Source of the DNA: Alphaproteobacteria bacterium
GTDB taxonomy: Bacteria > Pseudomonadota > Alphaproteobacteria > Micavibrionales > UBA2020
Direction of reading: 5' to 3'
DNA length: 64,000 nucleotides
Assembly (NCBI GenBank): GCA_025934695.1
Contig: JAICWS010000002.1
Location: 909,043-973,042, forward strand
Of the stretch, positions 15,817-25,504 are shown piece by piece (positions within the stretch are counted from its first letter, which is position 1; every line of letters starts with the position of its first letter). Both the position numbers and the translations under genes were made by a program. The notes below the pieces were generated by a model. The model did no database searches, was not told the origin of the DNA, and saw nothing but the letters and a program-made list of their open reading frames with translations.

Positions 15817-16737
15817 TCAGCGCGCGGGAACTGGCATTGCTGGAGACGCAGCCGCGGGACGCGCGCGCCTCGCGGCGAAGGCATTGACCGCGTCGTTCCA
15901 GTCGAAGTCGCGGTTGCGGGCTTTGATCTCGGCGACGAAGGCGTCGCGGGCCGCCGCGTTTTTCGTTACCACCATTCCGTCCGACGCTTCCGCGGCAAGC
16001 GTTACATTCTGTCCGTCGCGCCAGTAGAGTGAGAGCCGGTCCGCGTTTTCGAAATGCGTCTTCACGATCGCCGGAAACAGGCGGTTGCCTTTTTCCTTCA
16101 CGTCAGCTTCGGGCGTAAAGCGCCGCTCCTGCTGGAAGCGCGCGGCGACGCCCGAGAGCCGGGTCTCCTCGTTCGCATGACACATAATGACGTTGATGCC
16201 GTATCCGTCTTTGCGCGCGTTATCGTACAGGAATTTGATCGCAGGGCTGGTCGCCGTCGTCCCGACCGCGATGTCATAGCCGTCTTGTCCCAGACGGTTC
16301 AAAATCGTGTTCATCATGTAAATGGACGCCTGGCGCCAGTAAACATAGGCGATGGCGCGACCCGTGTCGGTATCGCCGAGCGCGTCGACCAGCTTGTTGT
16401 AGGGGCGGAACAGCTTGAGGATTTCGTCTGAATCGACATGCACCGTGTTTGCCAGCGGTCCGCCGTTCTTCTGGAACTCGCGGATGAGCGTTGTCTTCCC
16501 CGAACCGGGGCCGCCGGTCGTTACGGTCAACTGGCGGCCGCCCTTGGTCGCGTTTTTGGTGAGCTGCTTATAAATACGGTCGGTCTCCTGCGCGATGCGC
16601 CATTTGTCCCGCAGTGAATAATGGACCTGCTTTTCCTCCCCTTGGGGGGCGAGGCCGAAGAACGGCCGCATCTCGGCATCGAGCGAGATCGGCTTCTCGA
16701 GGTCCTTTGCGACGATGGACGGATCGATTAGAGCCAT
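15817..16737 (-). CDS. zeta-toxin-family P-loop kinase-like protein (orphan)
   Basis: 306 aa. Walker A GGPGSGKTT preceded by an extension of about 70 aa. Spacing of downstream Asp/Arg is typical of the zeta/AAA_33 kinase fold. No small antitoxin ORF is adjacent. Confidence 0.65.
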   Translation of the reverse strand: MALIDPSIVAKDLEKPISLDAEMRPFFGLAPQGEEKQVHYSLRDKWRIAQETDRIYKQLTKNATKGGRQLTVTTGGPGSGKTTLIREFQKNGGPLANTVHVDSDEILKLFRPYNKLVDALGDTDTGRAIAYVYWRQASIYMMNTILNRLGQDGYDIAVGTTATSPAIKFLYDNARKDGYGINVIMCHANEETRLSGVAARFQQERRFTPEADVKEKGNRLFPAIVKTHFENADRLSLYWRDGQNVTLAAEASDGMVVTKNAAARDAFVAEIKARNRDFDWNDAVNAFAARRARPAAASPAMPVPAR

Positions 16738-16822
16738 GCTGCTCTTCCAATAAATTGCGCTAAGGCAATTATAGGAAAAATACCTTCAGGAACGCTTAAC
16801 GGGCGCATCCGGCTGAAATCGT

Positions 16823-17581
16823 TTATGTTTCGGAGAGAAGTTCCAGCTGGAGCAGCGTGGCCAGGAATTTGTCGAGCGGGAAGGCGGGCTCCGCGCGCAT
16901 GGCGCTGTCGGCGGCGAAGGCGAGGCGCGGGTCGGCCATCAGGTGCTCGAGGAAGCGGTAGCCGCCTTCTGAAATCGTCCACACCGCAATGCGGCGCTCC
17001 TCGCGGTAAATCGCGGCGAAAGTGTCCGCCGCTTCCAGTTTGAAATCCTTCAGAGCGTCGCCCTGCGCCGAGACCTCGTGCCACAATTTATCGACCGGCC
17101 AGGCGGATTGCAGCAGGAAGACATGCGGCTGCAGGTGCAGCTTCAGGTTGATCGGGTCTTCGACTGCCTCCAGCATCGCGCCGGTCAGCGGCGGCTTTCG
17201 CGGCGACAGGTAGGATTCATGCGCCAGCCATTCCAGCCGCGCGACATCGGGCACGTACGGAAACTGGTTCAACGCCGGCAGGTGCGCCAGGAACTGCGGG
17301 AAGCCTTCGCCATAACCGTTCATGTCGCCGCTCTCCGGCGGAAAAGCCTTGATGAATTCGGCTCCGGCGAAATTGACGAACTTGTCGCCCAGCAACAGCA
17401 CCGTGACCGGAAAGATATCTTTCAGCAGGTCGCGCAAGGTTAAATGCGTGTTGTTTTTGTATACCGCCAGGCGCTCGTCCGGCGTGAAGGGGCCGTCCCC
17501 GGCGATGGGCAGGCCTTTCGCGTCTTCGCCGCGCAGGATCTTCGACATCAGGTCGTGCTGGAGCTTACGCAACGCGGGCAT
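16823..17581 (-). CDS. bufC: DUF2063-family protein, partner subunit of the DUF692/MNIO enzyme (BufC-like)
   Basis: 252 aa from the internal ATG 17581. Overlaps the stop of the DUF692 gene by 17 nt. N-terminal LQHDLMSKILRG... matches the DUF2063 pattern. Confidence 0.8.
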   Translation of the reverse strand: MPALRKLQHDLMSKILRGEDAKGLPIAGDGPFTPDERLAVYKNNTHLTLRDLLKDIFPVTVLLLGDKFVNFAGAEFIKAFPPESGDMNGYGEGFPQFLAHLPALNQFPYVPDVARLEWLAHESYLSPRKPPLTGAMLEAVEDPINLKLHLQPHVFLLQSAWPVDKLWHEVSAQGDALKDFKLEAADTFAAIYREERRIAVWTISEGGYRFLEHLMADPRLAFAADSAMRAEPAFPLDKFLATLLQLELLSET

Positions 17582-18440
17582 TTTTCTTACCCTTCGAAAC
17601 CGTCTCGCGAAGCTTGTCGGCCTTCCTTGCTTCGCCGAGGAGAGTTGACAGCGGCGGCAGATCGCTGTCCCATTCGACCAGCGTCGGCACATCGCCCAGC
17701 TTTTCGAGAGCGGCCTTGTAAAGCTCCCACACCGCGTCGTAAACCGCGTGATTATGCGCGTCGACGAAAATTTCGCGCCCGCCCGCCTCATTCACGTGAT
17801 AACCGGCGAGGTGGATCTCCTGAACCGCCGCTTTGGGAATGCCGGCGAGATATTCGCGCGCATCGAAGCCGAGGTTATGCGCGCTGACATGGATATTGTT
17901 GATATCGAGCAGCAGACCGCAGCCTGTGCGCTTCACGACTTCCGCGATGAACTGCGGCTCAGTCATGTCACGGTCCGCGAAGGCGAGATAGGACGAGGGG
18001 TTCTCGACCAGAATTTGTCTCTTGAGCACCTCCTGCACCCTGTCGATATTCGCGCAGAGTGTTTCATGCGCATCTTTCGTCATCGGCAGCGGCAGGAGGT
18101 CGGGCACGGATTTTCCCTCCGCCGTGCTCCAGGAAATATGCTCGGAAACGAGGACCGGGTCGGCGGCCTTTACCAGCGCTGCGAGCTTGGCCAGATGGTC
18201 TTCCGACACGCCTTCGGCCGAGCCCAGCGACAGGCCCACGCCGTGCAGGCTCAAGGGGTAAATCTCCCTCGCCTTCATCAATTGCTCGAAGGGAATGCCG
18301 CCTAGGCGGAAATAATTCTCAGAATGCGCCTCGACGAAACCGACCCCCGGCTTTTCGGTCAAAATCTGTTCGGCATGGAACGCGCGCAGACCGATACCCG
18401 TCTTGGCCTTTTTCAGGTCGGTTTTGCTTTTGCGCGTCAT
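17565..18440 (-). CDS. bufB: DUF692 / MNIO (multinuclear non-heme iron oxidative) enzyme, BufB/MbnB/TglH family
   Basis: 291 aa. TIM-barrel UPF0276 pattern (GIGLRAFH...VGFVEAHSENYF...LHGVGLSLGS...VSEHISW...VENPSSYL...LLLDINNIHVSAHN...EIHLAGY). Confidence 0.9.
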   Translation of the reverse strand: MTRKSKTDLKKAKTGIGLRAFHAEQILTEKPGVGFVEAHSENYFRLGGIPFEQLMKAREIYPLSLHGVGLSLGSAEGVSEDHLAKLAALVKAADPVLVSEHISWSTAEGKSVPDLLPLPMTKDAHETLCANIDRVQEVLKRQILVENPSSYLAFADRDMTEPQFIAEVVKRTGCGLLLDINNIHVSAHNLGFDAREYLAGIPKAAVQEIHLAGYHVNEAGGREIFVDAHNHAVYDAVWELYKAALEKLGDVPTLVEWDSDLPPLSTLLGEARKADKLRETVSKGKKNARVA

Positions 18441-18461
18441 TTTCGGGCCTTTAAACGGCGT

Positions 18462-19004
18462 TTATGCCGTCTTCTTCGTATCATATAGCCCATTTTTAAG
18501 CAATTTCCGGCGGATCAGCCAGTCGATTGAGAGGGTGCCGGGGCCTACGCAGACGAGGATGGGCATGATAACCATCCAGTAAATGCTTTCCTCGTCGCCG
18601 GGATAGACGAAGGTCTGAATGGTGAAGGCCATCACGAAAATGCCGAAAGCCGCACCGCGGCCCGCGAGACCCAGCATCAGCAGCACGGCCAGCGCGATCT
18701 CGACATAGGTCGTTCCGAAGGCGCCGAGCGCGGTCGGGGGCACGGGAAAGGAGATATCCATGCCCAGCCAATGCTTGACGTGGTTCTTCTCGAATTCCGG
18801 CTTGAATAGCGCATCGAAAGTGTCTTTGGCATGCTCCCAGCCCTCGGCGCTTTTTTCGCGGCCCGAGTTCCAGAATTCCATGCCGACGTATAGCCGCGCG
18901 GCCAGCAGGGCGAGGGGAGCCGCGAAGGTCTCGAGCACCCACAGCTTCCAGGCGGAAAGCTTGAGCAGTTTTTGCACCAGCGGCTTGTCGGTGAGAGCGG
19001 TCAT
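18462..19004 (-). CDS. DoxX-family membrane protein (BufD-like)
   Basis: 180 aa with four TM segments. LLAARLYVGMEFWNSG and C-terminal GPGTLSIDWL are typical of DoxX. AAGGAAGG SD. Confidence 0.8.
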   Translation of the reverse strand: MTALTDKPLVQKLLKLSAWKLWVLETFAAPLALLAARLYVGMEFWNSGREKSAEGWEHAKDTFDALFKPEFEKNHVKHWLGMDISFPVPPTALGAFGTTYVEIALAVLLMLGLAGRGAAFGIFVMAFTIQTFVYPGDEESIYWMVIMPILVCVGPGTLSIDWLIRRKLLKNGLYDTKKTA

Positions 19005-19031
19005 AGCGGCCTTCCTTATCCCTCATAATAG

Positions 19032-19067
19032 AATCCGCCGGGCGGGAACTCCACGCGCCGGCGGATT
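19032..19067 (-). promoter_or_regulatory. intercistronic stem-loop between the precursor-peptide gene and doxX
   Basis: Perfect 10-bp stem aatccgccgg / ccggcggatt with a 16-nt loop. There is no T-tract on the coding (minus) strand, so it is not a canonical terminator. Confidence 0.4.
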
Positions 19068-19092
19068 TATTTTCGCTGCAAACGCGAAGTAG

Positions 19093-19362
19093 TTACTTCT
19101 TCATCGAGTCAGTTTTCGGGGCTTCCGTCGAGCCGCCCATCAGCTTGTCGCAGAGGCCGGTGGGGGTCAGGACGAAATCGCCCTTGCTGTCAGCGGTCGA
19201 TTTGCCGGCGCAGGCATGTGCGTCCGTCTTGCAATCGTTCTTGCCGACTTTGGCGACGCCATAGCATTTTTCAGTCTTGGCATCATCGGCTTTTGCGGCG
19301 GTCGCAACGGCCATCGAGAGGCAAGCGGCGAGAGCGGTCGCGGTAAAGATATGCTTTTTCAT
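19093..19362 (-). CDS. bufA: DUF2282-like signal-peptide protein with four Cys; bufferin-type RiPP precursor (BufA1-like)
   Basis: 89 aa. Sec signal MKKHIFTATALAACLSMAVATAAKA. Core EKCYGVAKVGKNDCKTDAHACAGKS...GLCDKL. Confidence 0.85.
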   Translation of the reverse strand: MKKHIFTATALAACLSMAVATAAKADDAKTEKCYGVAKVGKNDCKTDAHACAGKSTADSKGDFVLTPTGLCDKLMGGSTEAPKTDSMKK

Positions 19363-19458
19363 GATTCCATCATCCTTTATTTTCGGTTTTTTAAACGAAT
19401 GGGCGATTGCCCGCTGATATCTTAGGCGGGTTTGGTTAAAAATTGTTGCAACACAAAC

Positions 19459-20106
19459 TTATTTTTTTGCAATGCGCAACTTTAACAGAATCAATCCGAG
19501 CGGATATCCGATCGCCGCAAGAATTATGACAGGCAGGAAATGCCAGACCAGCAGGTGCGAGGGCGTATCATTCGGGCAAATGAACCGCATGCCGAGGGCC
19601 GAGAAGGACCCGATGGATAAGACCAGCGCATAACCCGCCCAGCCACGCCAGACCGGCGCGCTGTGCAGCAGCATGACCATGCCAAGGGCCAAGGGCGCGC
19701 TCATGCCCAGCGTGAGACCGATAAAGCAGGAGGGCGCGGGTTCGGGCGCCGCCGTTGTCTGCGCCAGCTCGAAGCCAATCATCGCGAGCCAGAGCAGGGA
19801 TGAGATGCCGAGCGCGATCTTCACCGGCGGGCGGATGCGCGTATCGGGGATGCTGAGGCGGCAGGCGGCATAGGCGGAAAGCAGCGCGGCGATCAGGATG
19901 GCGGCGCCCTGGATGAGATAGATGGACTTGCGGAAACTCAGCAGCAGGTCGGGCCGCGGCTCATGCGTCACGCGCAGGATCAGCAGCGCCAGGAACAGCG
20001 CCGAAAGCGACAGGAGCGTTGCGCGCAGGCCCGCGCGCCGCACGGGCCGCACGGGCTGTACGTTCGACGACAGGCGCTCGATCAGGTCATGAGTATCCGT
20101 ACTCAA
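19459..20106 (-). CDS. nrsF: NrsF-family (DUF1109) anti-sigma factor, polytopic membrane protein
   Basis: 215 aa. Cytoplasmic N-terminus (DLIERLSSNVQPVRPV) followed by six TM segments. Overlaps the sigma gene stop by 20 nt. Confidence 0.8.
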   Translation of the reverse strand: MSTDTHDLIERLSSNVQPVRPVRRAGLRATLLSLSALFLALLILRVTHEPRPDLLLSFRKSIYLIQGAAILIAALLSAYAACRLSIPDTRIRPPVKIALGISSLLWLAMIGFELAQTTAAPEPAPSCFIGLTLGMSAPLALGMVMLLHSAPVWRGWAGYALVLSIGSFSALGMRFICPNDTPSHLLVWHFLPVIILAAIGYPLGLILLKLRIAKK

Positions 20107-20668
20107 TGAGCCACTCCTTCATTTTCTTGTAGGCGCGGTGGGCCGTGACCTTCACGGCGGATTCCGTCATGCCCAGCTTCTGCGCTGTTTCGGCCATGGA
20201 ATACCCCTCGACCTTGACCAGCAGCAGCACCTGCCGCTGCTTCTCGGGCAATTTCGTCAGCGCTTGCTGCACGTCCTTGCCGGATAAGGCCTCTTCAGGG
20301 TTATTCGCTTTGTCAGAGAGAAAAGTTTCAAGTTCTTCATCGTTGATTTCATTGGCATTCTGGCGGCCAAGCTTGCGCATATAGTCGATCATCTTGTGCC
20401 GGGCGATGCCATACATCCAGTTCTTGAAAGGCTGTTCGGGGTTATAGGTATGGCGCGCCGAATGGATGCCGAGCAGGATTTCCTGCACGATGTCATCGAT
20501 ATGGCTGGGAGAAAAGAAGCGGGTGCGCAAAAAGGCGCGGATCGCAGGGGTAATATCGGTCAGCAGGCGCTTATAGGCCGCGGCATCGCCTTTTTGGGCA
20601 GCCAGCATCAGGACCGACAAAGGGTCCGGGTGGTTGCTGTTCGCGGGTGGCGGCGGTGTTTCGGTCAT
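20087..20668 (-). CDS. sigF: ECF (group IV) RNA polymerase sigma factor, SigF-like
   Basis: 193 aa from ATG 20668. Region 2 (DIVQEILLGIHSARHTYNPEQPFKNWMYGIARHKMIDYMR) and region 4 (LPEKQRQVLLLVKVEGYSMAETAQKLGMTESAVKVTAHRAYKKM). Confidence 0.85.
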   Translation of the reverse strand: MTETPPPPANSNHPDPLSVLMLAAQKGDAAAYKRLLTDITPAIRAFLRTRFFSPSHIDDIVQEILLGIHSARHTYNPEQPFKNWMYGIARHKMIDYMRKLGRQNANEINDEELETFLSDKANNPEEALSGKDVQQALTKLPEKQRQVLLLVKVEGYSMAETAQKLGMTESAVKVTAHRAYKKMKEWLIEYGYS

Positions 20669-20766
20669 GCCCTCTATCACCAAATAAGGCACAATATCAT
20701 AGCCTTGCCTTTTGAATGATGTACAGCGGATTGTGGGAAAGGAAATGCCCTGCGGCAAGGCCGGCA

Positions 20767-21312
20767 TCAGGCGCGGGCGTCGCTGCGGTTTTCGCGGCCC
20801 GGGCGCAACAGCTTGCGCAGCCTGCGGCGGATGCCCTGCGGTTTTTCGGAAAGGCCCATGCCCGGACGCGCGTCTTCGGCATCGACGATCTGCCCGATAT
20901 CGGCAAAAGAGGGCGCGAAGACCTCGTTTTCAAGAAAATTCCGTTCGCCATGCCCGTCAGCCAGCCACTGCATCGCGGCGGGAAGATCGGCGGGCGAAAA
21001 GGTCTTGATGCCGCCGGAGAAGAGCGGACTGAGTATTCCCGCGGCGCTTCTTAGCCAGGGAAGCGCCGTGACGATCGCTGCGCGCGTCACATGCGCATGA
21101 ATGCGCACGGCCTCTGCGTCGGGCCAGGCGGCTTTGGGCGCAAAGCCCCGAAAATCGCCGTCTGTCACGAAAAGCAGCTTCGCGGCGCTGATATGCGGCG
21201 CGCGTTTCTTCAACACCGGGATGAAGATTTCCCGATACTCCTTGGGGGTGATGGTTCCGGTCGCGGAAACGCCGATGGTGTCAGGCGGAAGGCCTTCGAT
21301 GATGCGCAGCAT
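20767..21312 (-). CDS. STAS/SEC14 (SpoIIAA-like, DUF3478-type) domain protein with basic C-terminal tail
   Basis: About 181 aa from ATG 21312. The pattern GVSATGTITPKEY...LLFVTDGDFRGFAPKAAWPD...VTRAAIVT resembles the SpoIIAA-like family. Confidence 0.6.
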   Translation of the reverse strand: MLRIIEGLPPDTIGVSATGTITPKEYREIFIPVLKKRAPHISAAKLLFVTDGDFRGFAPKAAWPDAEAVRIHAHVTRAAIVTALPWLRSAAGILSPLFSGGIKTFSPADLPAAMQWLADGHGERNFLENEVFAPSFADIGQIVDAEDARPGMGLSEKPQGIRRRLRKLLRPGRENRSDARA

Positions 21313-21560
21313 ATCTTGAAAACAAAAAAGAGTGGCGCGGGGTTCCACTAGCCAAGACAGCGGGAGGAAGTCAAAATGCTGAATACCAAGGTGTTTCGGC
21401 GTCTTCCGAGCCGTTTACATTAAGATTATCTCAACCTTTCGTTAAAACTTTCCTTACCCATCTTTGGTAGTGTTGACTTGTGTGTGGACCTCGGGGGCTC
21501 TGCCCCGAACTAAAGAATACGGACAAACGGCAAGATTTCTTTGTGTGTGTGAAGATTGGG

Positions 21561-21601: not shown

Positions 21602-22111
21602 TTAATTAATGCGGGGATCGTATTTGACCTGCAGCTTGCGGAGCGCTTTCGTGGCTGCGTCGGTAAAAGAAACAAGCTCTCCGTCCGCCACCTTTTGCTG
21701 GAAATCAGGGGCTTCGCGCGCGGCCTGGATAAAGGCCTGGGACACTTTCGGATCGGGGCTGAAACGCAGCGCCAGGTCGACCATCGGCGACACGGGTGTA
21801 TAGGCCCCCGCTTGTCCAGCTTCCCGAGCCTGTTCCTGCAGCAGCACCATGGCCGCCGCCTGCGATGTCTGTTTCGGATTGAAGGCGGCCGCGGCGGCGG
21901 TGAGGGTGTCTGCCGCCTCCTTGCTGATGAAGATCTCGATATTCGTATTGATCTCGGGAAATTCGCCGCGGCGGAGCGCCTCGAGCATCTTGGCCCTTGT
22001 CCTGGCGTCGATATCTTCCTTGGTCATGCCGGAGAGCTCGGTGATTTTCGCCCCGAACGACTTTACCTCGACGACTTTTCCCGCGAATTCATTAAAATCC
22101 ATACCCGGCAC
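21602..22111 (-). CDS. hypothetical protein
   Basis: ORF 21602..22156. The sigma70-like promoter at 22140..22168 places the first two ATGs upstream of the likely transcription start. GTG at 22111 has AGGGAGAG 4 nt upstream. ATG at 22102 is the alternative. Confidence 0.5.
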   Translation of the reverse strand: MPGMDFNEFAGKVVEVKSFGAKITELSGMTKEDIDARTRAKMLEALRRGEFPEINTNIEIFISKEAADTLTAAAAAFNPKQTSQAAAMVLLQEQAREAGQAGAYTPVSPMVDLALRFSPDPKVSQAFIQAAREAPDFQQKVADGELVSFTDAATKALRKLQVKYDPRIN

Positions 22112-22139
22112 CAGACTCTCCCTTTCGAAATGTCCGGAT

Positions 22140-22168
22140 AGCATAGCCAATTCCAAATATTATGTCAA
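22140..22168 (-). promoter_or_regulatory. sigma70-type promoter (TTGACA, 17-nt spacer, TATGCT) embedded in an AT-rich inverted repeat
   Basis: The minus strand reads aataaTTGACAtaatatttggaattggcTATGCT. It shares the 15-nt block AAATATTATGTCAAT (plus strand) with 40243..40257. Confidence 0.5.
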
Positions 22169-23737: not shown

Positions 23738-25504
23738 TTACGGGTTGCCCACGCTGGGAGCGAGGAAATCCTCATACATGGTGGTAACATGAGAATCGTA
23801 ATTTTTTGCAACTTTCGGCAAATCAGTTAAGAAAGTGCTGAATTTGTAGCGCACGACTAAATTTCCATTAATAGCATAAGTCGTTTCGCATGGGATTCTA
23901 GCTGGCCTCAACTCGTATGGAACTGGAGGGCCAACGAAATTTCTGTCCAGGTTGAAAGGTTTGGGATAGAAACTGGGTTTAAATCTTTCGCAAACTGCCA
24001 CAAATGGTTTGCCGTCGGGGGTCGACCATTCCTTTGACATCCATAATATTGGGGTCGTTTCTCCCTTCAATCCCGGAGCGCGTATGCGCGGATCGCTCTG
24101 TATTGCAGGCATCGTCAACATTTGACCATTAGCGGCTTCCGCAATGACCGCTTCAGGGACTGTCTTCTGCTTCTGATAATAATCATAGGCAGAATCATAA
24201 TCGATCCGCTTCAATGATCCACGAGCTGTCCTGCCGATATGAGCTCCAAGTTCATAAATTCGAATCGTCTCTGGATAGCCAGGATTGTTGCGAGGCGCTT
24301 CAGAATGATGTGCGCATTCTAACTTTTGCCATTCCTTGTTTTCGACGCGACATGCGCTTGAATATGGAAGGTTGTTAATTTCCTGATCTAGACGAAGGTT
24401 TATCATTTTGACAGAAATTAGGTCGTTACCGTCATTTGTTTTCTGGCATAGCCGGTCGTAATCTAATTTTTCATCGGTGTCATCAGTATAAACTTCAAAC
24501 ACTCCCAATGGAGAAAGGTTTAAGCGATTCTCGCCTATTCTTGCTTTCAGGGCGTTCGTCAAACAGATTTCTGTAGCTGGAGGCGTTTTGAACAGTGACA
24601 AATTTTCGACTTTTTTAATTAAGTGACTTACGAAGAAAATTGCCAGCATCAGCATAATAATGGCGCTTTGCGGAAGCTTGTTTTTGAGACGTCTTGATAT
24701 TGGATTTCGGGGTTCCCATGCATCTAGACGGACCCACCACGAACAGAGCTTGGCGCGATTCAGGAGCATAGGCAAAGGCACTGCTAGGATGAACACTGCC
24801 CAGATGGACAAAAATGCGAGGAAACTTGTTTCCCAAACGGGGTTTCCCAGATTGAATGTATATCTACTGATTCCCTCATCGGCAATTCTAAGGTCGCCAG
24901 TTGTCGCATGAAGTCCAAACAACCACACGCGGAGAGCGATGACGAGCGCCAACCCGAGCAACGATATTAATGCGAACTGAAATAAGTTAATCAGCCGGTC
25001 ACCGGACAATGCCCCGCGAATCTTTGATAGGGCACCGTTTGAGTTTGTGTCGGTGCCGGGAAGGATGACTAATGGCAAAAGTGCAAAAAGTCCGAAGCAT
25101 ACTTCCGGAGCTTTGAAGAAAAAATCCGATGGGGGTAGCTTATGTTCTCCCAAAGAACCGATCAGTACGATTGCACCCCCGGGACTCACTAACAACGAAA
25201 AAGGTAATAATGGGAAAAGTAGAAGCCAGAAAACCGAGAATCGAAGGTTTTTTAATCGGGCCATTGTGCACCGGGCGCAAAGCCCCATTGCCAACAACAT
25301 CGACAGAGGAACGACAAAAAACACAATAACAAATCCGGCGCCATTGCCCGGAGTTGTTCCTTTCAGCAGTGAAATTGCCGCGGTTGGCCCCAGCCAGATG
25401 CAGAAACCTACGATTAAAAGTGATAAAACGAATGCCAGTCGGCCAATGCCAGCCTTCTGAGGGGAATTACCTCTGGCCATCTTACTCTTTGGCGAAGTCA
25501 TCAA
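23738..25504 (-). CDS. hypothetical polytopic membrane protein with a C-terminal soluble domain of about 280 aa; low-GC insert in the glp operon
   Basis: 588-aa uninterrupted ORF. About 8 hydrophobic segments in the first 300 aa. No motif I recognise and no MIP-family NPA boxes. Gaps of 3 nt to glpD and 12 nt to glpK. Confidence 0.7.
   Translation of the reverse strand: MMTSPKSKMARGNSPQKAGIGRLAFVLSLLIVGFCIWLGPTAAISLLKGTTPGNGAGFVIVFFVVPLSMLLAMGLCARCTMARLKNLRFSVFWLLLFPLLPFSLLVSPGGAIVLIGSLGEHKLPPSDFFFKAPEVCFGLFALLPLVILPGTDTNSNGALSKIRGALSGDRLINLFQFALISLLGLALVIALRVWLFGLHATTGDLRIADEGISRYTFNLGNPVWETSFLAFLSIWAVFILAVPLPMLLNRAKLCSWWVRLDAWEPRNPISRRLKNKLPQSAIIMLMLAIFFVSHLIKKVENLSLFKTPPATEICLTNALKARIGENRLNLSPLGVFEVYTDDTDEKLDYDRLCQKTNDGNDLISVKMINLRLDQEINNLPYSSACRVENKEWQKLECAHHSEAPRNNPGYPETIRIYELGAHIGRTARGSLKRIDYDSAYDYYQKQKTVPEAVIAEAANGQMLTMPAIQSDPRIRAPGLKGETTPILWMSKEWSTPDGKPFVAVCERFKPSFYPKPFNLDRNFVGPPVPYELRPARIPCETTYAINGNLVVRYKFSTFLTDLPKVAKNYDSHVTTMYEDFLAPSVGNP

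Follow-up and report, generated by a model that had tools for sequence, protein, structure and literature searches.

This locus raises the question of what a short open reading frame with four spaced cysteines encodes, and whether its export signal and C-terminal tail set the product apart from peptides already described. The frame, referred to here as bufA, lies in a 64,000-nucleotide stretch of alphaproteobacterial DNA, hereafter called the window. It is encoded on the minus strand and read from 19362 to 19093 with the stop codon included, and in the open reading frame list it has an ATG start and a product of 89 residues. A Shine-Dalgarno-like AAAGGA precedes the ATG by about 10 nt, and translation of the plus strand over the same positions gives an unrelated sequence. 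An earlier note made from the sequence had proposed a precursor of a ribosomally synthesized and modified peptide (RiPP) at this position; the peptide it gave is identical to the listed product, and its coordinates stand once the strand, which it had left out, is specified as minus.

The peptide and its family

The coding frame and the regions of its product discussed below are the following.

19093..19362, minus strand: bufA, very probable bufferin-1 (DUF2282) precursor of 89 aa, from the translated frame, a PF10048 match and four invariant Cys
19288..19362, minus strand: predicted Sec signal peptide, residues 1-25, by heuristic hydropathy and the -3/-1 rule
19129..19272, minus strand: DUF2282 domain, residues 31-78, by Pfam limits and an AF2 model, with a predicted CysI (C33)-CysIV (C71) disulfide and predicted 5-thiooxazole sites at CysII (C44) and CysIII (C51)
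19096..19128, minus strand: variable C-terminal tail, residues 79-89 (TEAPKTDSMKK), outside the Pfam match and variable in relatives

The match of the peptide to Pfam DUF2282 (PF10048) is far above chance, at 64.7 bits and E = 7.3e-18 relative to a gathering cutoff of 22.4, and it spans nearly the whole profile (residues 31-78 on positions 2-52 of 53). Within a set of 5.8 billion proteins we recovered 38 homologs, all 38 of which carry PF10048, the nearest being from alphaproteobacterial, Micavibrio-like MAGs; at E <= 1e-3, 2045 cluster-50 representatives match the family. The cysteines previously described in EKC, NDC, HAC and GLC contexts are all present, as C33, C44, C51 and C71, and they occupy invariant columns in alignments of both 38 and 122 relatives, which together with the Pfam score bears out the proposed four-cysteine DUF2282 assignment. 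A fifth cysteine, C14, had gone unmentioned and lies within the predicted signal peptide. Spacing between the four core residues is 11/7/20, the commonest pattern in the family being 11/7/21, with 11/8/21 also found, and identity to the Caulobacter-like subgroup of the alignment is only 33-46%. The roles of these cysteines, as disulfide partners or 5-thiooxazole precursors, are predicted from homology to Buf1, the bufferin system characterised in Caulobacter vibrioides (buf1ABCD, with BufA1 = CCNA_03363; Leprevost et al. 2024, PMC11626156). Searching NCBIfam with the peptide returned no model above cutoff; its sole match was BufA2, at 30.7 bits where the cutoff is 60, and assignment to bufferin 2 (Buf_6/12Cys, Cu_RiPP_BufA2) was rejected on that score and on the presence of four core cysteines only.

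Structure prediction by AF2 was poor when based on 38 sequences (mean pLDDT 60), and we therefore used the model from 122 sequences (mean 77.9), in which residues 31-80 reach block means of 84-95. Strand 30-34 of this model holds CysI, a second strand spans residues 63-67 and a short helix at 71-73 holds CysIV, so that the predicted topology matches that published for Buf1, namely a sheet of two strands, the first containing CysI, and one short helix. Searches of solved structures gave no sequence match with the peptide profile and no match by fold at E <= 0.001.

The C-terminal tail had been singled out as an extra, Lys-rich segment lying beyond the conserved core from GLCDKL onward, an emphasis that is not supported. 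The glycine G77 of the MGGS motif is nearly invariant and the Pfam match extends to residue 78, so that MGGS belongs to the conserved domain and only about 11 residues fall outside it. In total, 18 residues follow CysIV, compared with 16 in Caulobacter Buf1 (68-aa core, Cys52; PMC11626156) and a median of 14 among 92 diverse representatives, where the interquartile range is 12-19, at least 18 residues are found in 27%, and Lys is the commonest tail residue at 16%. Both sequence and length of the tail differ among aligned relatives, and it is probably disordered, as suggested by a block-mean pLDDT of 66 for residues 81-89 vs 93-95 in the preceding blocks. Judged by these sequence comparisons, the 11-residue K/E/P-type tail is a variable appendage whose length and Lys content are normal for the bufferin family.

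The gene cluster and its expression

bufA is the third of six genes that lie on one strand with short spacers or overlaps, listed here in the order in which they are read, bufA itself falling between nrsF and doxX.

20087..20668, minus strand: ECF sigma factor (SigF-like), matching Pfam Sigma70_r2, Sigma70_r4_2 and Sigma70_ECF, and NCBIfam sigma70-ECF at 101 bits vs 42.9
19459..20106, minus strand: nrsF, DUF1109 membrane anti-sigma factor, Pfam NrsF at 82.3 bits vs a cutoff of 26.8
18462..19004, minus strand: doxX (bufD-like), membrane protein, Pfam DoxX at 35.4 bits vs a cutoff of 23.6
17565..18440, minus strand: bufB, MNIO (DUF692) bufferin maturase, NCBIfam MNIO_BufB at 361.1 bits vs a cutoff of 310
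16823..17581, minus strand: bufC, DUF2063 partner protein, Pfam DUF2063 at 61.7 bits vs a cutoff of 27.2

This order is identical in the seven nearest genomic loci, bufA-bufB-bufC(-doxX) is present in most of 80 related loci, and bufC comes after bufB in nearly every related locus with a bufB gene. The bufB product also matches Pfam MbnB_TglH_ChrH at E = 3e-100, and by sequence search its closest solved structure is 3BWW (E = 2.9e-35); the same type of search of the PDB with BufC gave no match. Matches of the bufC product to NCBIfam HvfC (weak) and of the doxX product to the HvfX family both fall below cutoff. Two gene starts differ from the listed frames: for the sigma factor, the ATG at 20668 behind GAGGG is likelier than the listed frame end at 20767, and bufC likely starts at M71 of its listed frame, with a 17-nt overlap with the 3' end of bufB and the DUF2063 match beginning at residue 77. 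No second bufA copy or second buf cluster, and no other small Cys-rich frame homologous to a precursor, was found within the 64-kb window. Flanking genes for a STAS-like protein, a zeta-toxin-like kinase, a glycerol kinase and an acyltransferase were considered as cluster members and left out of the system because they are not conserved beside it in relatives.

We conclude that bufA is, with high probability, the precursor of a BufA1-type bufferin and the structural gene of a bufferin-1 cluster that is complete with six genes. The original reading of the frame as a RiPP precursor is thereby sustained by the DUF2282 match, the Sec-type signal features and the modification enzymes encoded alongside, and the gene is an ordinary, uncharacterised member of an already described family.

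Three noncoding elements may bear on expression of the cluster.

20696..20725, minus strand: sigma-70-like promoter candidate, TGTACA-18-TATGAT, upstream of the sigma gene, from a consensus scan only
19425..19449, minus strand: candidate ECF (SigF-type) promoter, GCAACA-N15-CGCC, a weak match in the 96-nt nrsF-bufA spacer at a position homologous to the motif of relatives
19027..19071, minus strand: GC-rich hairpin, terminator- or attenuator-like, between the bufA stop and the doxX start, from folding and conservation

The first of these is not significant taken alone, the consensus scan finding one such site vs 1.8 expected in shuffles. For the second, the published Caulobacter SigF motif is GTAACC-N16-CGAA, and the homologous upstream position carries exactly this sequence in three relatives (L002, L004 and L005) and GTAACG-N16-CGAA in a fourth (L007). 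Scanned over the whole window with up to two mismatches, the motif gives 46 matches vs 44.4 expected, none of them in the spacer upstream of bufA, and since the scan is thus at chance level the bufA promoter assignment is made purely on positional homology with these relatives.

The hairpin after bufA folds at -33.3 kcal/mol (z = -3.4), a stability equalled by none of 200 shuffles, and all 8 related loci keep it, 5 of its 12 pairs showing compensatory changes. T-runs follow it in the relatives and the window's own T-run is weak; this weakness and a long loop explain why a simple terminator scan did not call it. An Rfam scan of 16500-21500 at E <= 1 returned no RNA family. We also considered a hairpin in the 5'-UTR, which folds just downstream of the -10 element in each relative, yet the alignment gave no consensus structure and the candidate was dropped. 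The terminator-like hairpin after bufA and the placement of doxX between bufA and bufB, the latter shared by the seven nearest loci, are clade-specific traits, both of them minor.

Proposed mechanism and rival readings

Each step of the mechanism that we propose for this locus is inferred by homology from the Buf1 system. Metal stress would inactivate the membrane anti-sigma factor NrsF, possibly via its periplasm-facing Cys127 and Cys177, which are 50 residues apart and so share the spacing of C131 and C181, functionally important in Caulobacter NrsF. The ECF sigma factor thus freed would transcribe bufA-doxX-bufB-bufC from the ECF-type promoter in the spacer upstream of bufA, and the hairpin after bufA probably ends part of the transcripts, from which we propose that precursor mRNA would exceed enzyme mRNA. 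In the cytoplasm, the iron-dependent oxidase BufB and its partner BufC would convert C44 and C51 to 5-thiooxazoles, with a loss of 4 Da each, DoxX being taken as an accessory factor. These assignments follow Caulobacter Buf1, where CysII and CysIII become 5-thiooxazoles (-4.03 Da each) and CysI and CysIV form a disulfide (PMC11626156), and where modification of BufA1 requires BufB and BufC and nothing more, DoxX being dispensable for it.

The Sec signal peptide would then carry the peptide over the inner membrane, and signal peptidase I would cut after AKA25 or, less likely, after AVA20. A C33-C71 disulfide would staple the small beta-sheet fold, and the mature product of 64 residues would have a monoisotopic mass of about 6613.06 Da (6623.14 minus 10.08, for the AKA|DD cut). 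In the periplasm, this product is expected to chelate Cu(I) or Cu(II) at 1:1 via thiooxazole N and S atoms and so to act as a copper buffer, by analogy with Caulobacter Buf1, which binds one copper in 2N2S coordination with KD values of about 6e-15 M (Cu2+) and about 7e-20 M (Cu+) (PMC11626156).

A more far-reaching proposal, to which we give a rather low probability, is that the cluster has been rewired in the Micavibrio-like clade, where the hairpin after bufA, with doxX placed before bufB and bufC, might serve as an attenuator that fixes a high precursor:enzyme ratio and ties DoxX closer to the precursor. In the same proposal, the K/E/P/M tail typical of the clade, often ending in MKK or EKK, could have a function of its own, for instance by supplying an additional Met ligand for Cu(I) or by delaying engagement with Sec until the modifications are complete.

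The copper assignment is where the main rival reading diverges, keeping the chemistry and the family but placing the trigger or role elsewhere, in defence against chromate, cadmium, gold, reactive chlorine or another metal or oxidant. Its support is drawn from related systems: Caulobacter SigF/NrsF was first described as responsive to chromium and cadmium, gold and cadmium as well as copper induce the homologous gig operons, and MerC-Buf1 fusions suggest mercury handling by some bufferins. In Azospira, SigF/NrsF is reported to control hypochlorite scavenging via a Met-rich periplasmic peptide (PMC4436054). Against this, Buf1 was selective for copper when metals were offered as a mixture, its affinity for copper is femtomolar or tighter, the growth phenotype of buf mutants in the model organism is copper-specific, and no gene in the window points to another metal, so that we regard a non-copper role as improbable.

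The remaining rivals concern the fate of the peptide, and here the N-terminus is informative. It combines a basic MKKH n-region, a hydrophobic 9-mer with a KD peak of 2.3 and an AKA|DD site, with AVA|TA after residue 20 as an alternative AXA-type site, and the same heuristic finds n-region, hydrophobic core and AXA site together in 83 of 88 diverse relatives. We therefore predict a Sec signal peptide, of 25 residues, and the 64-residue product previously proposed from an AKA-DD cut agrees with the 89-residue frame. The residues L11-A12-A13-C14 could also pass for a lipobox recognised by Lgt and signal peptidase II, in which case the peptide would be anchored to the membrane via C14 instead of being a soluble 64-mer; this LAAC fits [LVI][ASTVI][GAS]C behind a basic n-region. 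A cysteine at position 14 would, however, leave a signal peptide of 13 residues, which is shorter than usual among lipoproteins. The position is occupied by Val in 14/14 closest homologs, so that the motif is not conserved, and beyond C14 the sequence stays hydrophobic and then reaches a good AXA site, as expected if C14 simply belongs to a type I signal peptide's h-region. The literature puts predicted lipoproteins at about 16% of Buf2 bufferins, and a lipobox-like motif precedes CysI in 3 of the 88 diverse DUF2282 relatives; overall we hold anchoring through C14 to be very improbable. That the product is instead an unmodified small secreted or membrane protein, with its four cysteines in two disulfides and the MNIO acting elsewhere, draws on the sizeable fractions of DUF2282 genes reported without an adjacent MNIO gene and on orphan bufA copies in four related loci (L022, L023, L026 and L036), and is likewise very improbable given that the predicted signal peptide is the only hydrophobic segment, that bufA precedes bufB and bufC in a gene order kept among relatives, that the MNIO scores as a BufB equivalog, that the window holds no alternative precursor homolog of this small Cys-rich kind, and that BufB and BufC suffice to modify BufA1 in vitro.

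Returning to the bufferin-1 reading, export of a RiPP through Sec had been remarked on as unusual; it is indeed rare, and it is not novel, being an already published hallmark of bufferins, with the signal peptide of Caulobacter BufA1 shown experimentally to be functional and cut at the predicted site (PMC11626156). The locus can be labelled confidently as a bufferin-1 (BufA1/BufB/BufC/DoxX, SigF-NrsF) copper-stress cluster, in replacement of the legacy Pfam title "predicted integral membrane protein" and of "uncharacterized membrane protein" labels. With this locus, a family of more than 2000 cluster-50 representatives gains one more uncharacterised member, from an alphaproteobacterial lineage that has been little studied, and the finding matters little beyond annotation. 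The hairpin after bufA and the relocated doxX might bear on precursor-to-enzyme stoichiometry or on the role of DoxX, and both would be incremental.

Comparison with known systems

Among MNIO-modified copper chelators, methanobactin (MbnA with MbnB/MbnC) resembles the system proposed here in being a RiPP on whose Cys residues a DUF692/MNIO enzyme acts together with a partner protein, and the window's BufB has distant sequence matches among MbnB structures (E = 1e-10 to 3e-5). Methanobactin differs in its short leader-plus-core precursor without a Sec signal, in its oxazolone-thioamide groups, in having MbnC instead of a DUF2063 protein, and in being a secreted chalkophore for copper uptake, whereas bufferins buffer copper in the periplasm. 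Assignment of the cluster to this type was rejected, the MbnB model scoring 60 bits vs a cutoff of 325 and bufA combining an N-terminus that resembles a signal peptide with a folded domain of 50 residues. The EGKCG-repeat captophorins (oxazolin/HvfA, fontiphorin and gonophorin) likewise use an MNIO and a DUF2063 protein (PME1), often with DoxX, form 5-thiooxazoles and bind copper; their EGKCG-type repeats are predicted to be unstructured or helical, unlike a folded four-Cys DUF2282 domain. An oxazolin/HvfA-type cluster was also rejected, as bufA has no EGKCG repeat and the MNIO reaches 222.2 bits on the HvfB model, for which the cutoff is 360.

Bufferin 2 (BufA2) is likewise a Sec-exported thiooxazole copper chelator modified by an MNIO and a DUF2063 protein, with a similar predicted fold. 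Where bufA has four core Cys and a DUF2282 match, precursors of bufferin 2 show six or twelve conserved Cys and lack the DUF2282 signature; the Caulobacter buf2 operon lacks doxX, and clusters of that family lack the sigma and NrsF genes that are typical of Buf1 clusters.

The closest counterpart is Caulobacter Buf1 itself, which has a DUF2282 precursor with four Cys and a Sec signal peptide, and a BufB/BufC/DoxX cluster adjoining sigF-nrsF (PMC11626156). All of these have their equivalents here, with the Sec signal predicted, an MNIO BufB and a DUF2063 BufC, and the two peptides are also alike in predicted fold and in the number of residues after CysIV. The differences lie in gene order (bufA-bufB-bufC-doxX in Caulobacter, bufA-doxX-bufB-bufC here), in Cys spacing (11/8/21 there, 11/7/20 here), in the context of CysIII (TSC there, HAC here), and in the strong hairpin that here splits bufA from the downstream genes and the extra signal-peptide cysteine, C14.

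Gene cluster and synteny

The product of bufA is an ATG-started peptide of 89 aa, read from the minus strand and identical to the one that the earlier note had placed at 19093-19362 (the plus-strand translation of this interval is unrelated), and its start codon is preceded, at a distance of about 10 nt, by a Shine-Dalgarno-like AAAGGA. The surrounding genes form a bufferin-1 cluster of the kind described by Leprevost et al. (PNAS 2024, PMC11626156).

Genes of the cluster (window coordinates)
20087-20668, minus strand: ECF sigma factor; ORF listed to 20767, ATG at 20668 behind GAGGG the likelier start
19459-20106, minus strand: nrsF, NrsF/DUF1109 anti-sigma factor
19093-19362, minus strand: bufA, DUF2282 precursor
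18462-19004, minus strand: doxX, DoxX protein
17565-18440, minus strand: bufB, MNIO/DUF692 enzyme (NCBIfam MNIO_BufB equivalog, 361.1 bits, cutoff 310)
16823-17581, minus strand: bufC, DUF2063 protein

The listed sigma-factor ORF (226 aa) is probably over-extended at its 5' end, and a start at ATG 20668 gives 193 aa; the 100 nt before this codon contain a sigma-70-like TGTACA-18-TATGAT element as well as a terminator-like hairpin belonging to the STAS-like gene further upstream. The window NrsF carries Cys127 and Cys177, whose 50-residue spacing equals that of the functionally important C131 and C181 of Caulobacter NrsF.

Across 80 related genomic loci retrieved for synteny comparison, the order sigma-nrsF-bufA-doxX-bufB-bufC is identical in the seven nearest (L001-L005, L007 and L010), all of them alphaproteobacterial or Micavibrio-like MAGs, and the canonical bufA-bufB-bufC-doxX order is found in more distant gamma- and alphaproteobacterial loci. 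On comparison with L011-L080, the placement of doxX between bufA and bufB is confined to the window and these seven relatives. The window has one copy of bufA, and no second buf gene set was found within it; among relatives there are orphan bufA genes not adjoining any MNIO gene, tandem bufA triplets, or two complete buf clusters inside a 12-kb stretch (L023, from the genome of L005; L036, from the MAG of L010; L006, L008, L034 and L061). The neighbourhood flanking the cluster (STAS-like, zeta-toxin-like kinase, glycerol kinase and acyltransferase genes) is not kept in relatives. The zeta-toxin/AAA_33 kinase-like ORF (306 aa, 15817-16737, minus strand) follows bufC in the same orientation after 85 nt; in none of the related loci does it stand beside the cluster. 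Two minus-strand ORFs, 21602-22156 (184 aa) and 23738-25504 (588 aa), went unmatched in Pfam at E <= 1e-3; the longer one adjoins glycerol kinase and glycerol-3-phosphate dehydrogenase genes and resembles a membrane protein that crosses the bilayer several times and ends in a large soluble portion.

Candidate transcriptional signals around bufA

Two elements flank the precursor gene.

Candidate regulatory elements (window coordinates)
19425-19449, minus strand: GCAACA-N15-CGCC, candidate SigF-type promoter at the position homologous to the relatives' motif; weak match
about 19027-19071, minus strand: GC-rich hairpin in the 88 nt that separate the bufA stop from the doxX start

An exact copy of the published SigF motif, GTAACC-N16-CGAA, precedes bufA by about 90 nt in L002, L004 and L005; L007 has GTAACG-N16-CGAA, and L001 and L003 have G(A/C)AAC variants in which the spacer measures 15 nt. 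Because the window match is weak and a whole-window scan that allowed the canonical motif two mismatches stayed at chance (46 matches versus 44.4 expected), we infer SigF-type control of window bufA only from position and gene neighbourhood. In the 5'-UTR (19363-19424, minus strand in the window), each relative folds a short GC hairpin immediately 3' of the putative -10 element. No consensus structure emerged from the alignment, and the hairpin may either stabilise the 5' end or be of no significance.

The bufA-doxX hairpin folds at -33.3 kcal/mol (z = -3.4, with 0 of 200 shuffles equally stable) and is kept in 8/8 related loci, downstream of bufA in the window, L001-L005, L007 and L010, with an invariant CCGCCGG/CCGGCGG stem and compensatory changes in 5 of 12 pairs. 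Relatives have clean T-runs after it; that of the window is poor (ATTCTATTAT), and a simple terminator scan did not call the hairpin. The space between hairpin and doxX is insufficient for a promoter, and the most economical reading is an attenuating terminator, where partial read-through would yield more precursor than enzyme transcripts. No mention of this hairpin was found in the available portions of the bufferin literature.

Every step of the mechanism is assigned to the window cluster by homology, beginning with metal stress that would free the ECF sigma factor from NrsF, upon which sigma would transcribe bufA and, via read-through, doxX-bufB-bufC. The trigger or the target metal may be different from copper: SigF/NrsF systems also respond to Cr and Cd, or to hypochlorite in Azospira, and some bufferins are fused to MerC.

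The BufA precursor

The DUF2282 pattern proposed in the earlier note from EKC, NDC, HAC and GLC contexts is borne out, with core Cys at positions 33, 44, 51 and 71 that align with the relatives' invariant Cys and a Pfam DUF2282 (PF10048) match over residues 31-78 (64.7 bits, gathering cutoff 22.4). The same domain is present in 38/38 BufA homologs from a search of 5.8 billion proteins, and a profile search of 1.84 billion cluster-50 representatives recovered 2045 relatives at E <= 1e-3, 1076 of them at E <= 1e-10. Alignment with 38 and with 122 relatives shows no variation at the four core Cys, G35, N42 and G69, and almost none in the GKNDC motif around CysII.

At the N-terminus, heuristic analysis finds a basic n-region (MKKH), a hydrophobic core (9-residue Kyte-Doolittle peak of 2.3) and two AXA-type sites, AVA-TA after residue 20 and AKA-DD after residue 25, of which the latter would leave the 64-residue product originally claimed. 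A signal peptide is very likely, and the same three features recur in 83 of 88 diverse relatives. Such Sec-type features had been called unusual for a RiPP precursor; they are present, but constitute a known family hallmark, since Caulobacter BufA1 was published with a Sec signal peptide (PMC11626156). A fifth Cys overlooked at that stage, C14, lies inside the signal peptide within a lipobox-like L-A-A-C (residues 11-14; window 19321-19332, minus strand). This sequence could be a lipobox, but its Cys is unusually near the N-terminus and is replaced by Val in 14/14 closest homologs; among the 88 diverse family members, a lipobox-like motif occurs in 3, and 10 contain an additional Cys ahead of CysI.

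At the other end, the tail after GLCDKL (MGGSTEAPKTDSMKK) had been placed outside the conserved core, which holds approximately for the variable TEAPKTDSMKK but not for G77, which is nearly invariant, the Pfam match itself reaching residue 78. Nor is the tail an extra feature: its 18 residues after CysIV compare with 16 in Caulobacter Buf1 (68-aa core, CysIV = Cys52; PMC11626156), a median of 13 (range 10-48) in 85 bufA ORFs of the related loci, and a median of 14 (interquartile range 12-19, 27% with at least 18) in 92 diverse single-domain representatives. Lys is the commonest tail residue family-wide (16%), followed by Pro and Ala, and similar K/E/P/A tails of 14-27 residues are found in the closest relatives. 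The tail is an ordinary, variable appendage without distinguishing value, and modelling suggests that it is probably disordered. Among the tails of this clade (window, L001, L002, L004, L005 and L007), (E/S)MKK and EKK are frequent endings, and Met, a residue able to ligate Cu(I), occurs in them (KMMNEKK, EEMKK, MEEMKK). In P0016 and P0017, two DUF2282 proteins of 119 aa, the tail is 47 residues long, is rich in Ala, Pro and Lys, and closes with SWWQKLWS(N/K)I, which might be an amphipathic or membrane-associating C-terminus.

The AF2 model of BufA (122 sequences, mean pLDDT 77.9; block means of 84-95 over residues 31-80, against 66 over residues 81-89) features a strand at 30-34 with CysI, a strand at 63-67 and a short helix at 71-73 with CysIV, the same topology as that published, with NMR support, for Caulobacter Buf1 (PMC11626156). 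No solved structure matched BufA by sequence or by fold; the nearest solved relative of the window BufB is 3BWW, followed by MbnB structures.

Proposed maturation and comparison with known bufferins

In the cytoplasm, C44 and C51 would be oxidised to 5-thiooxazoles by BufB and BufC, whereupon BufA would be exported through Sec and cut by signal peptidase I, most likely after A25, a C33-C71 disulfide would form, and the 64-residue periplasmic peptide would chelate copper. A monoisotopic mass of about 6613.06 Da (6623.14 minus 10.08) is predicted for this product. That BufA is instead an unmodified disulfide protein is unlikely because the adjacent MNIO is a BufB equivalog and synteny is conserved.

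The modified, copper-chelating product proposed here follows the published description of Caulobacter vibrioides BufA1, a four-Cys DUF2282 precursor of the 80-120-residue class with a Sec signal peptide, encoded beside BufB1 (MNIO), BufC1 (DUF2063 plus an RRE-like domain) and BufD1 (DoxX) and adjoining sigF-nrsF (PMC11626156). Its signal peptide drives export and is cut at the predicted site, and heterocycles can form without it in an overexpression system (PMC11626156). Mature Buf1 has lost the signal peptide and weighs 10 Da less than the unmodified core, CysII and CysIII having become 5-thiooxazoles (4.03 Da lost each) and CysI and CysIV a disulfide; BufB1 and BufC1 are necessary and sufficient for modification, and DoxX is dispensable (PMC11626156). 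Copper is bound 1:1 in a 2N2S arrangement, with KD values of about 6e-15 M for Cu2+ and 7e-20 M for Cu+ (PMC11626156). A follow-up survey gives precursor, MNIO, DUF2063 and DoxX genes as the cluster core and associates sigma/NrsF genes with Buf1 rather than Buf2 clusters, and a 2025 preprint unites bufferins, oxazolin, fontiphorin and gonophorin as thiooxazole 'captophorins'. The interpretation in the earlier note was essentially right, but the family was already known: the window peptide is an uncharacterised yet typical bufferin-1 family member, and its cluster departs from typical bufferin-1 in minor, clade-level variations of operon layout.
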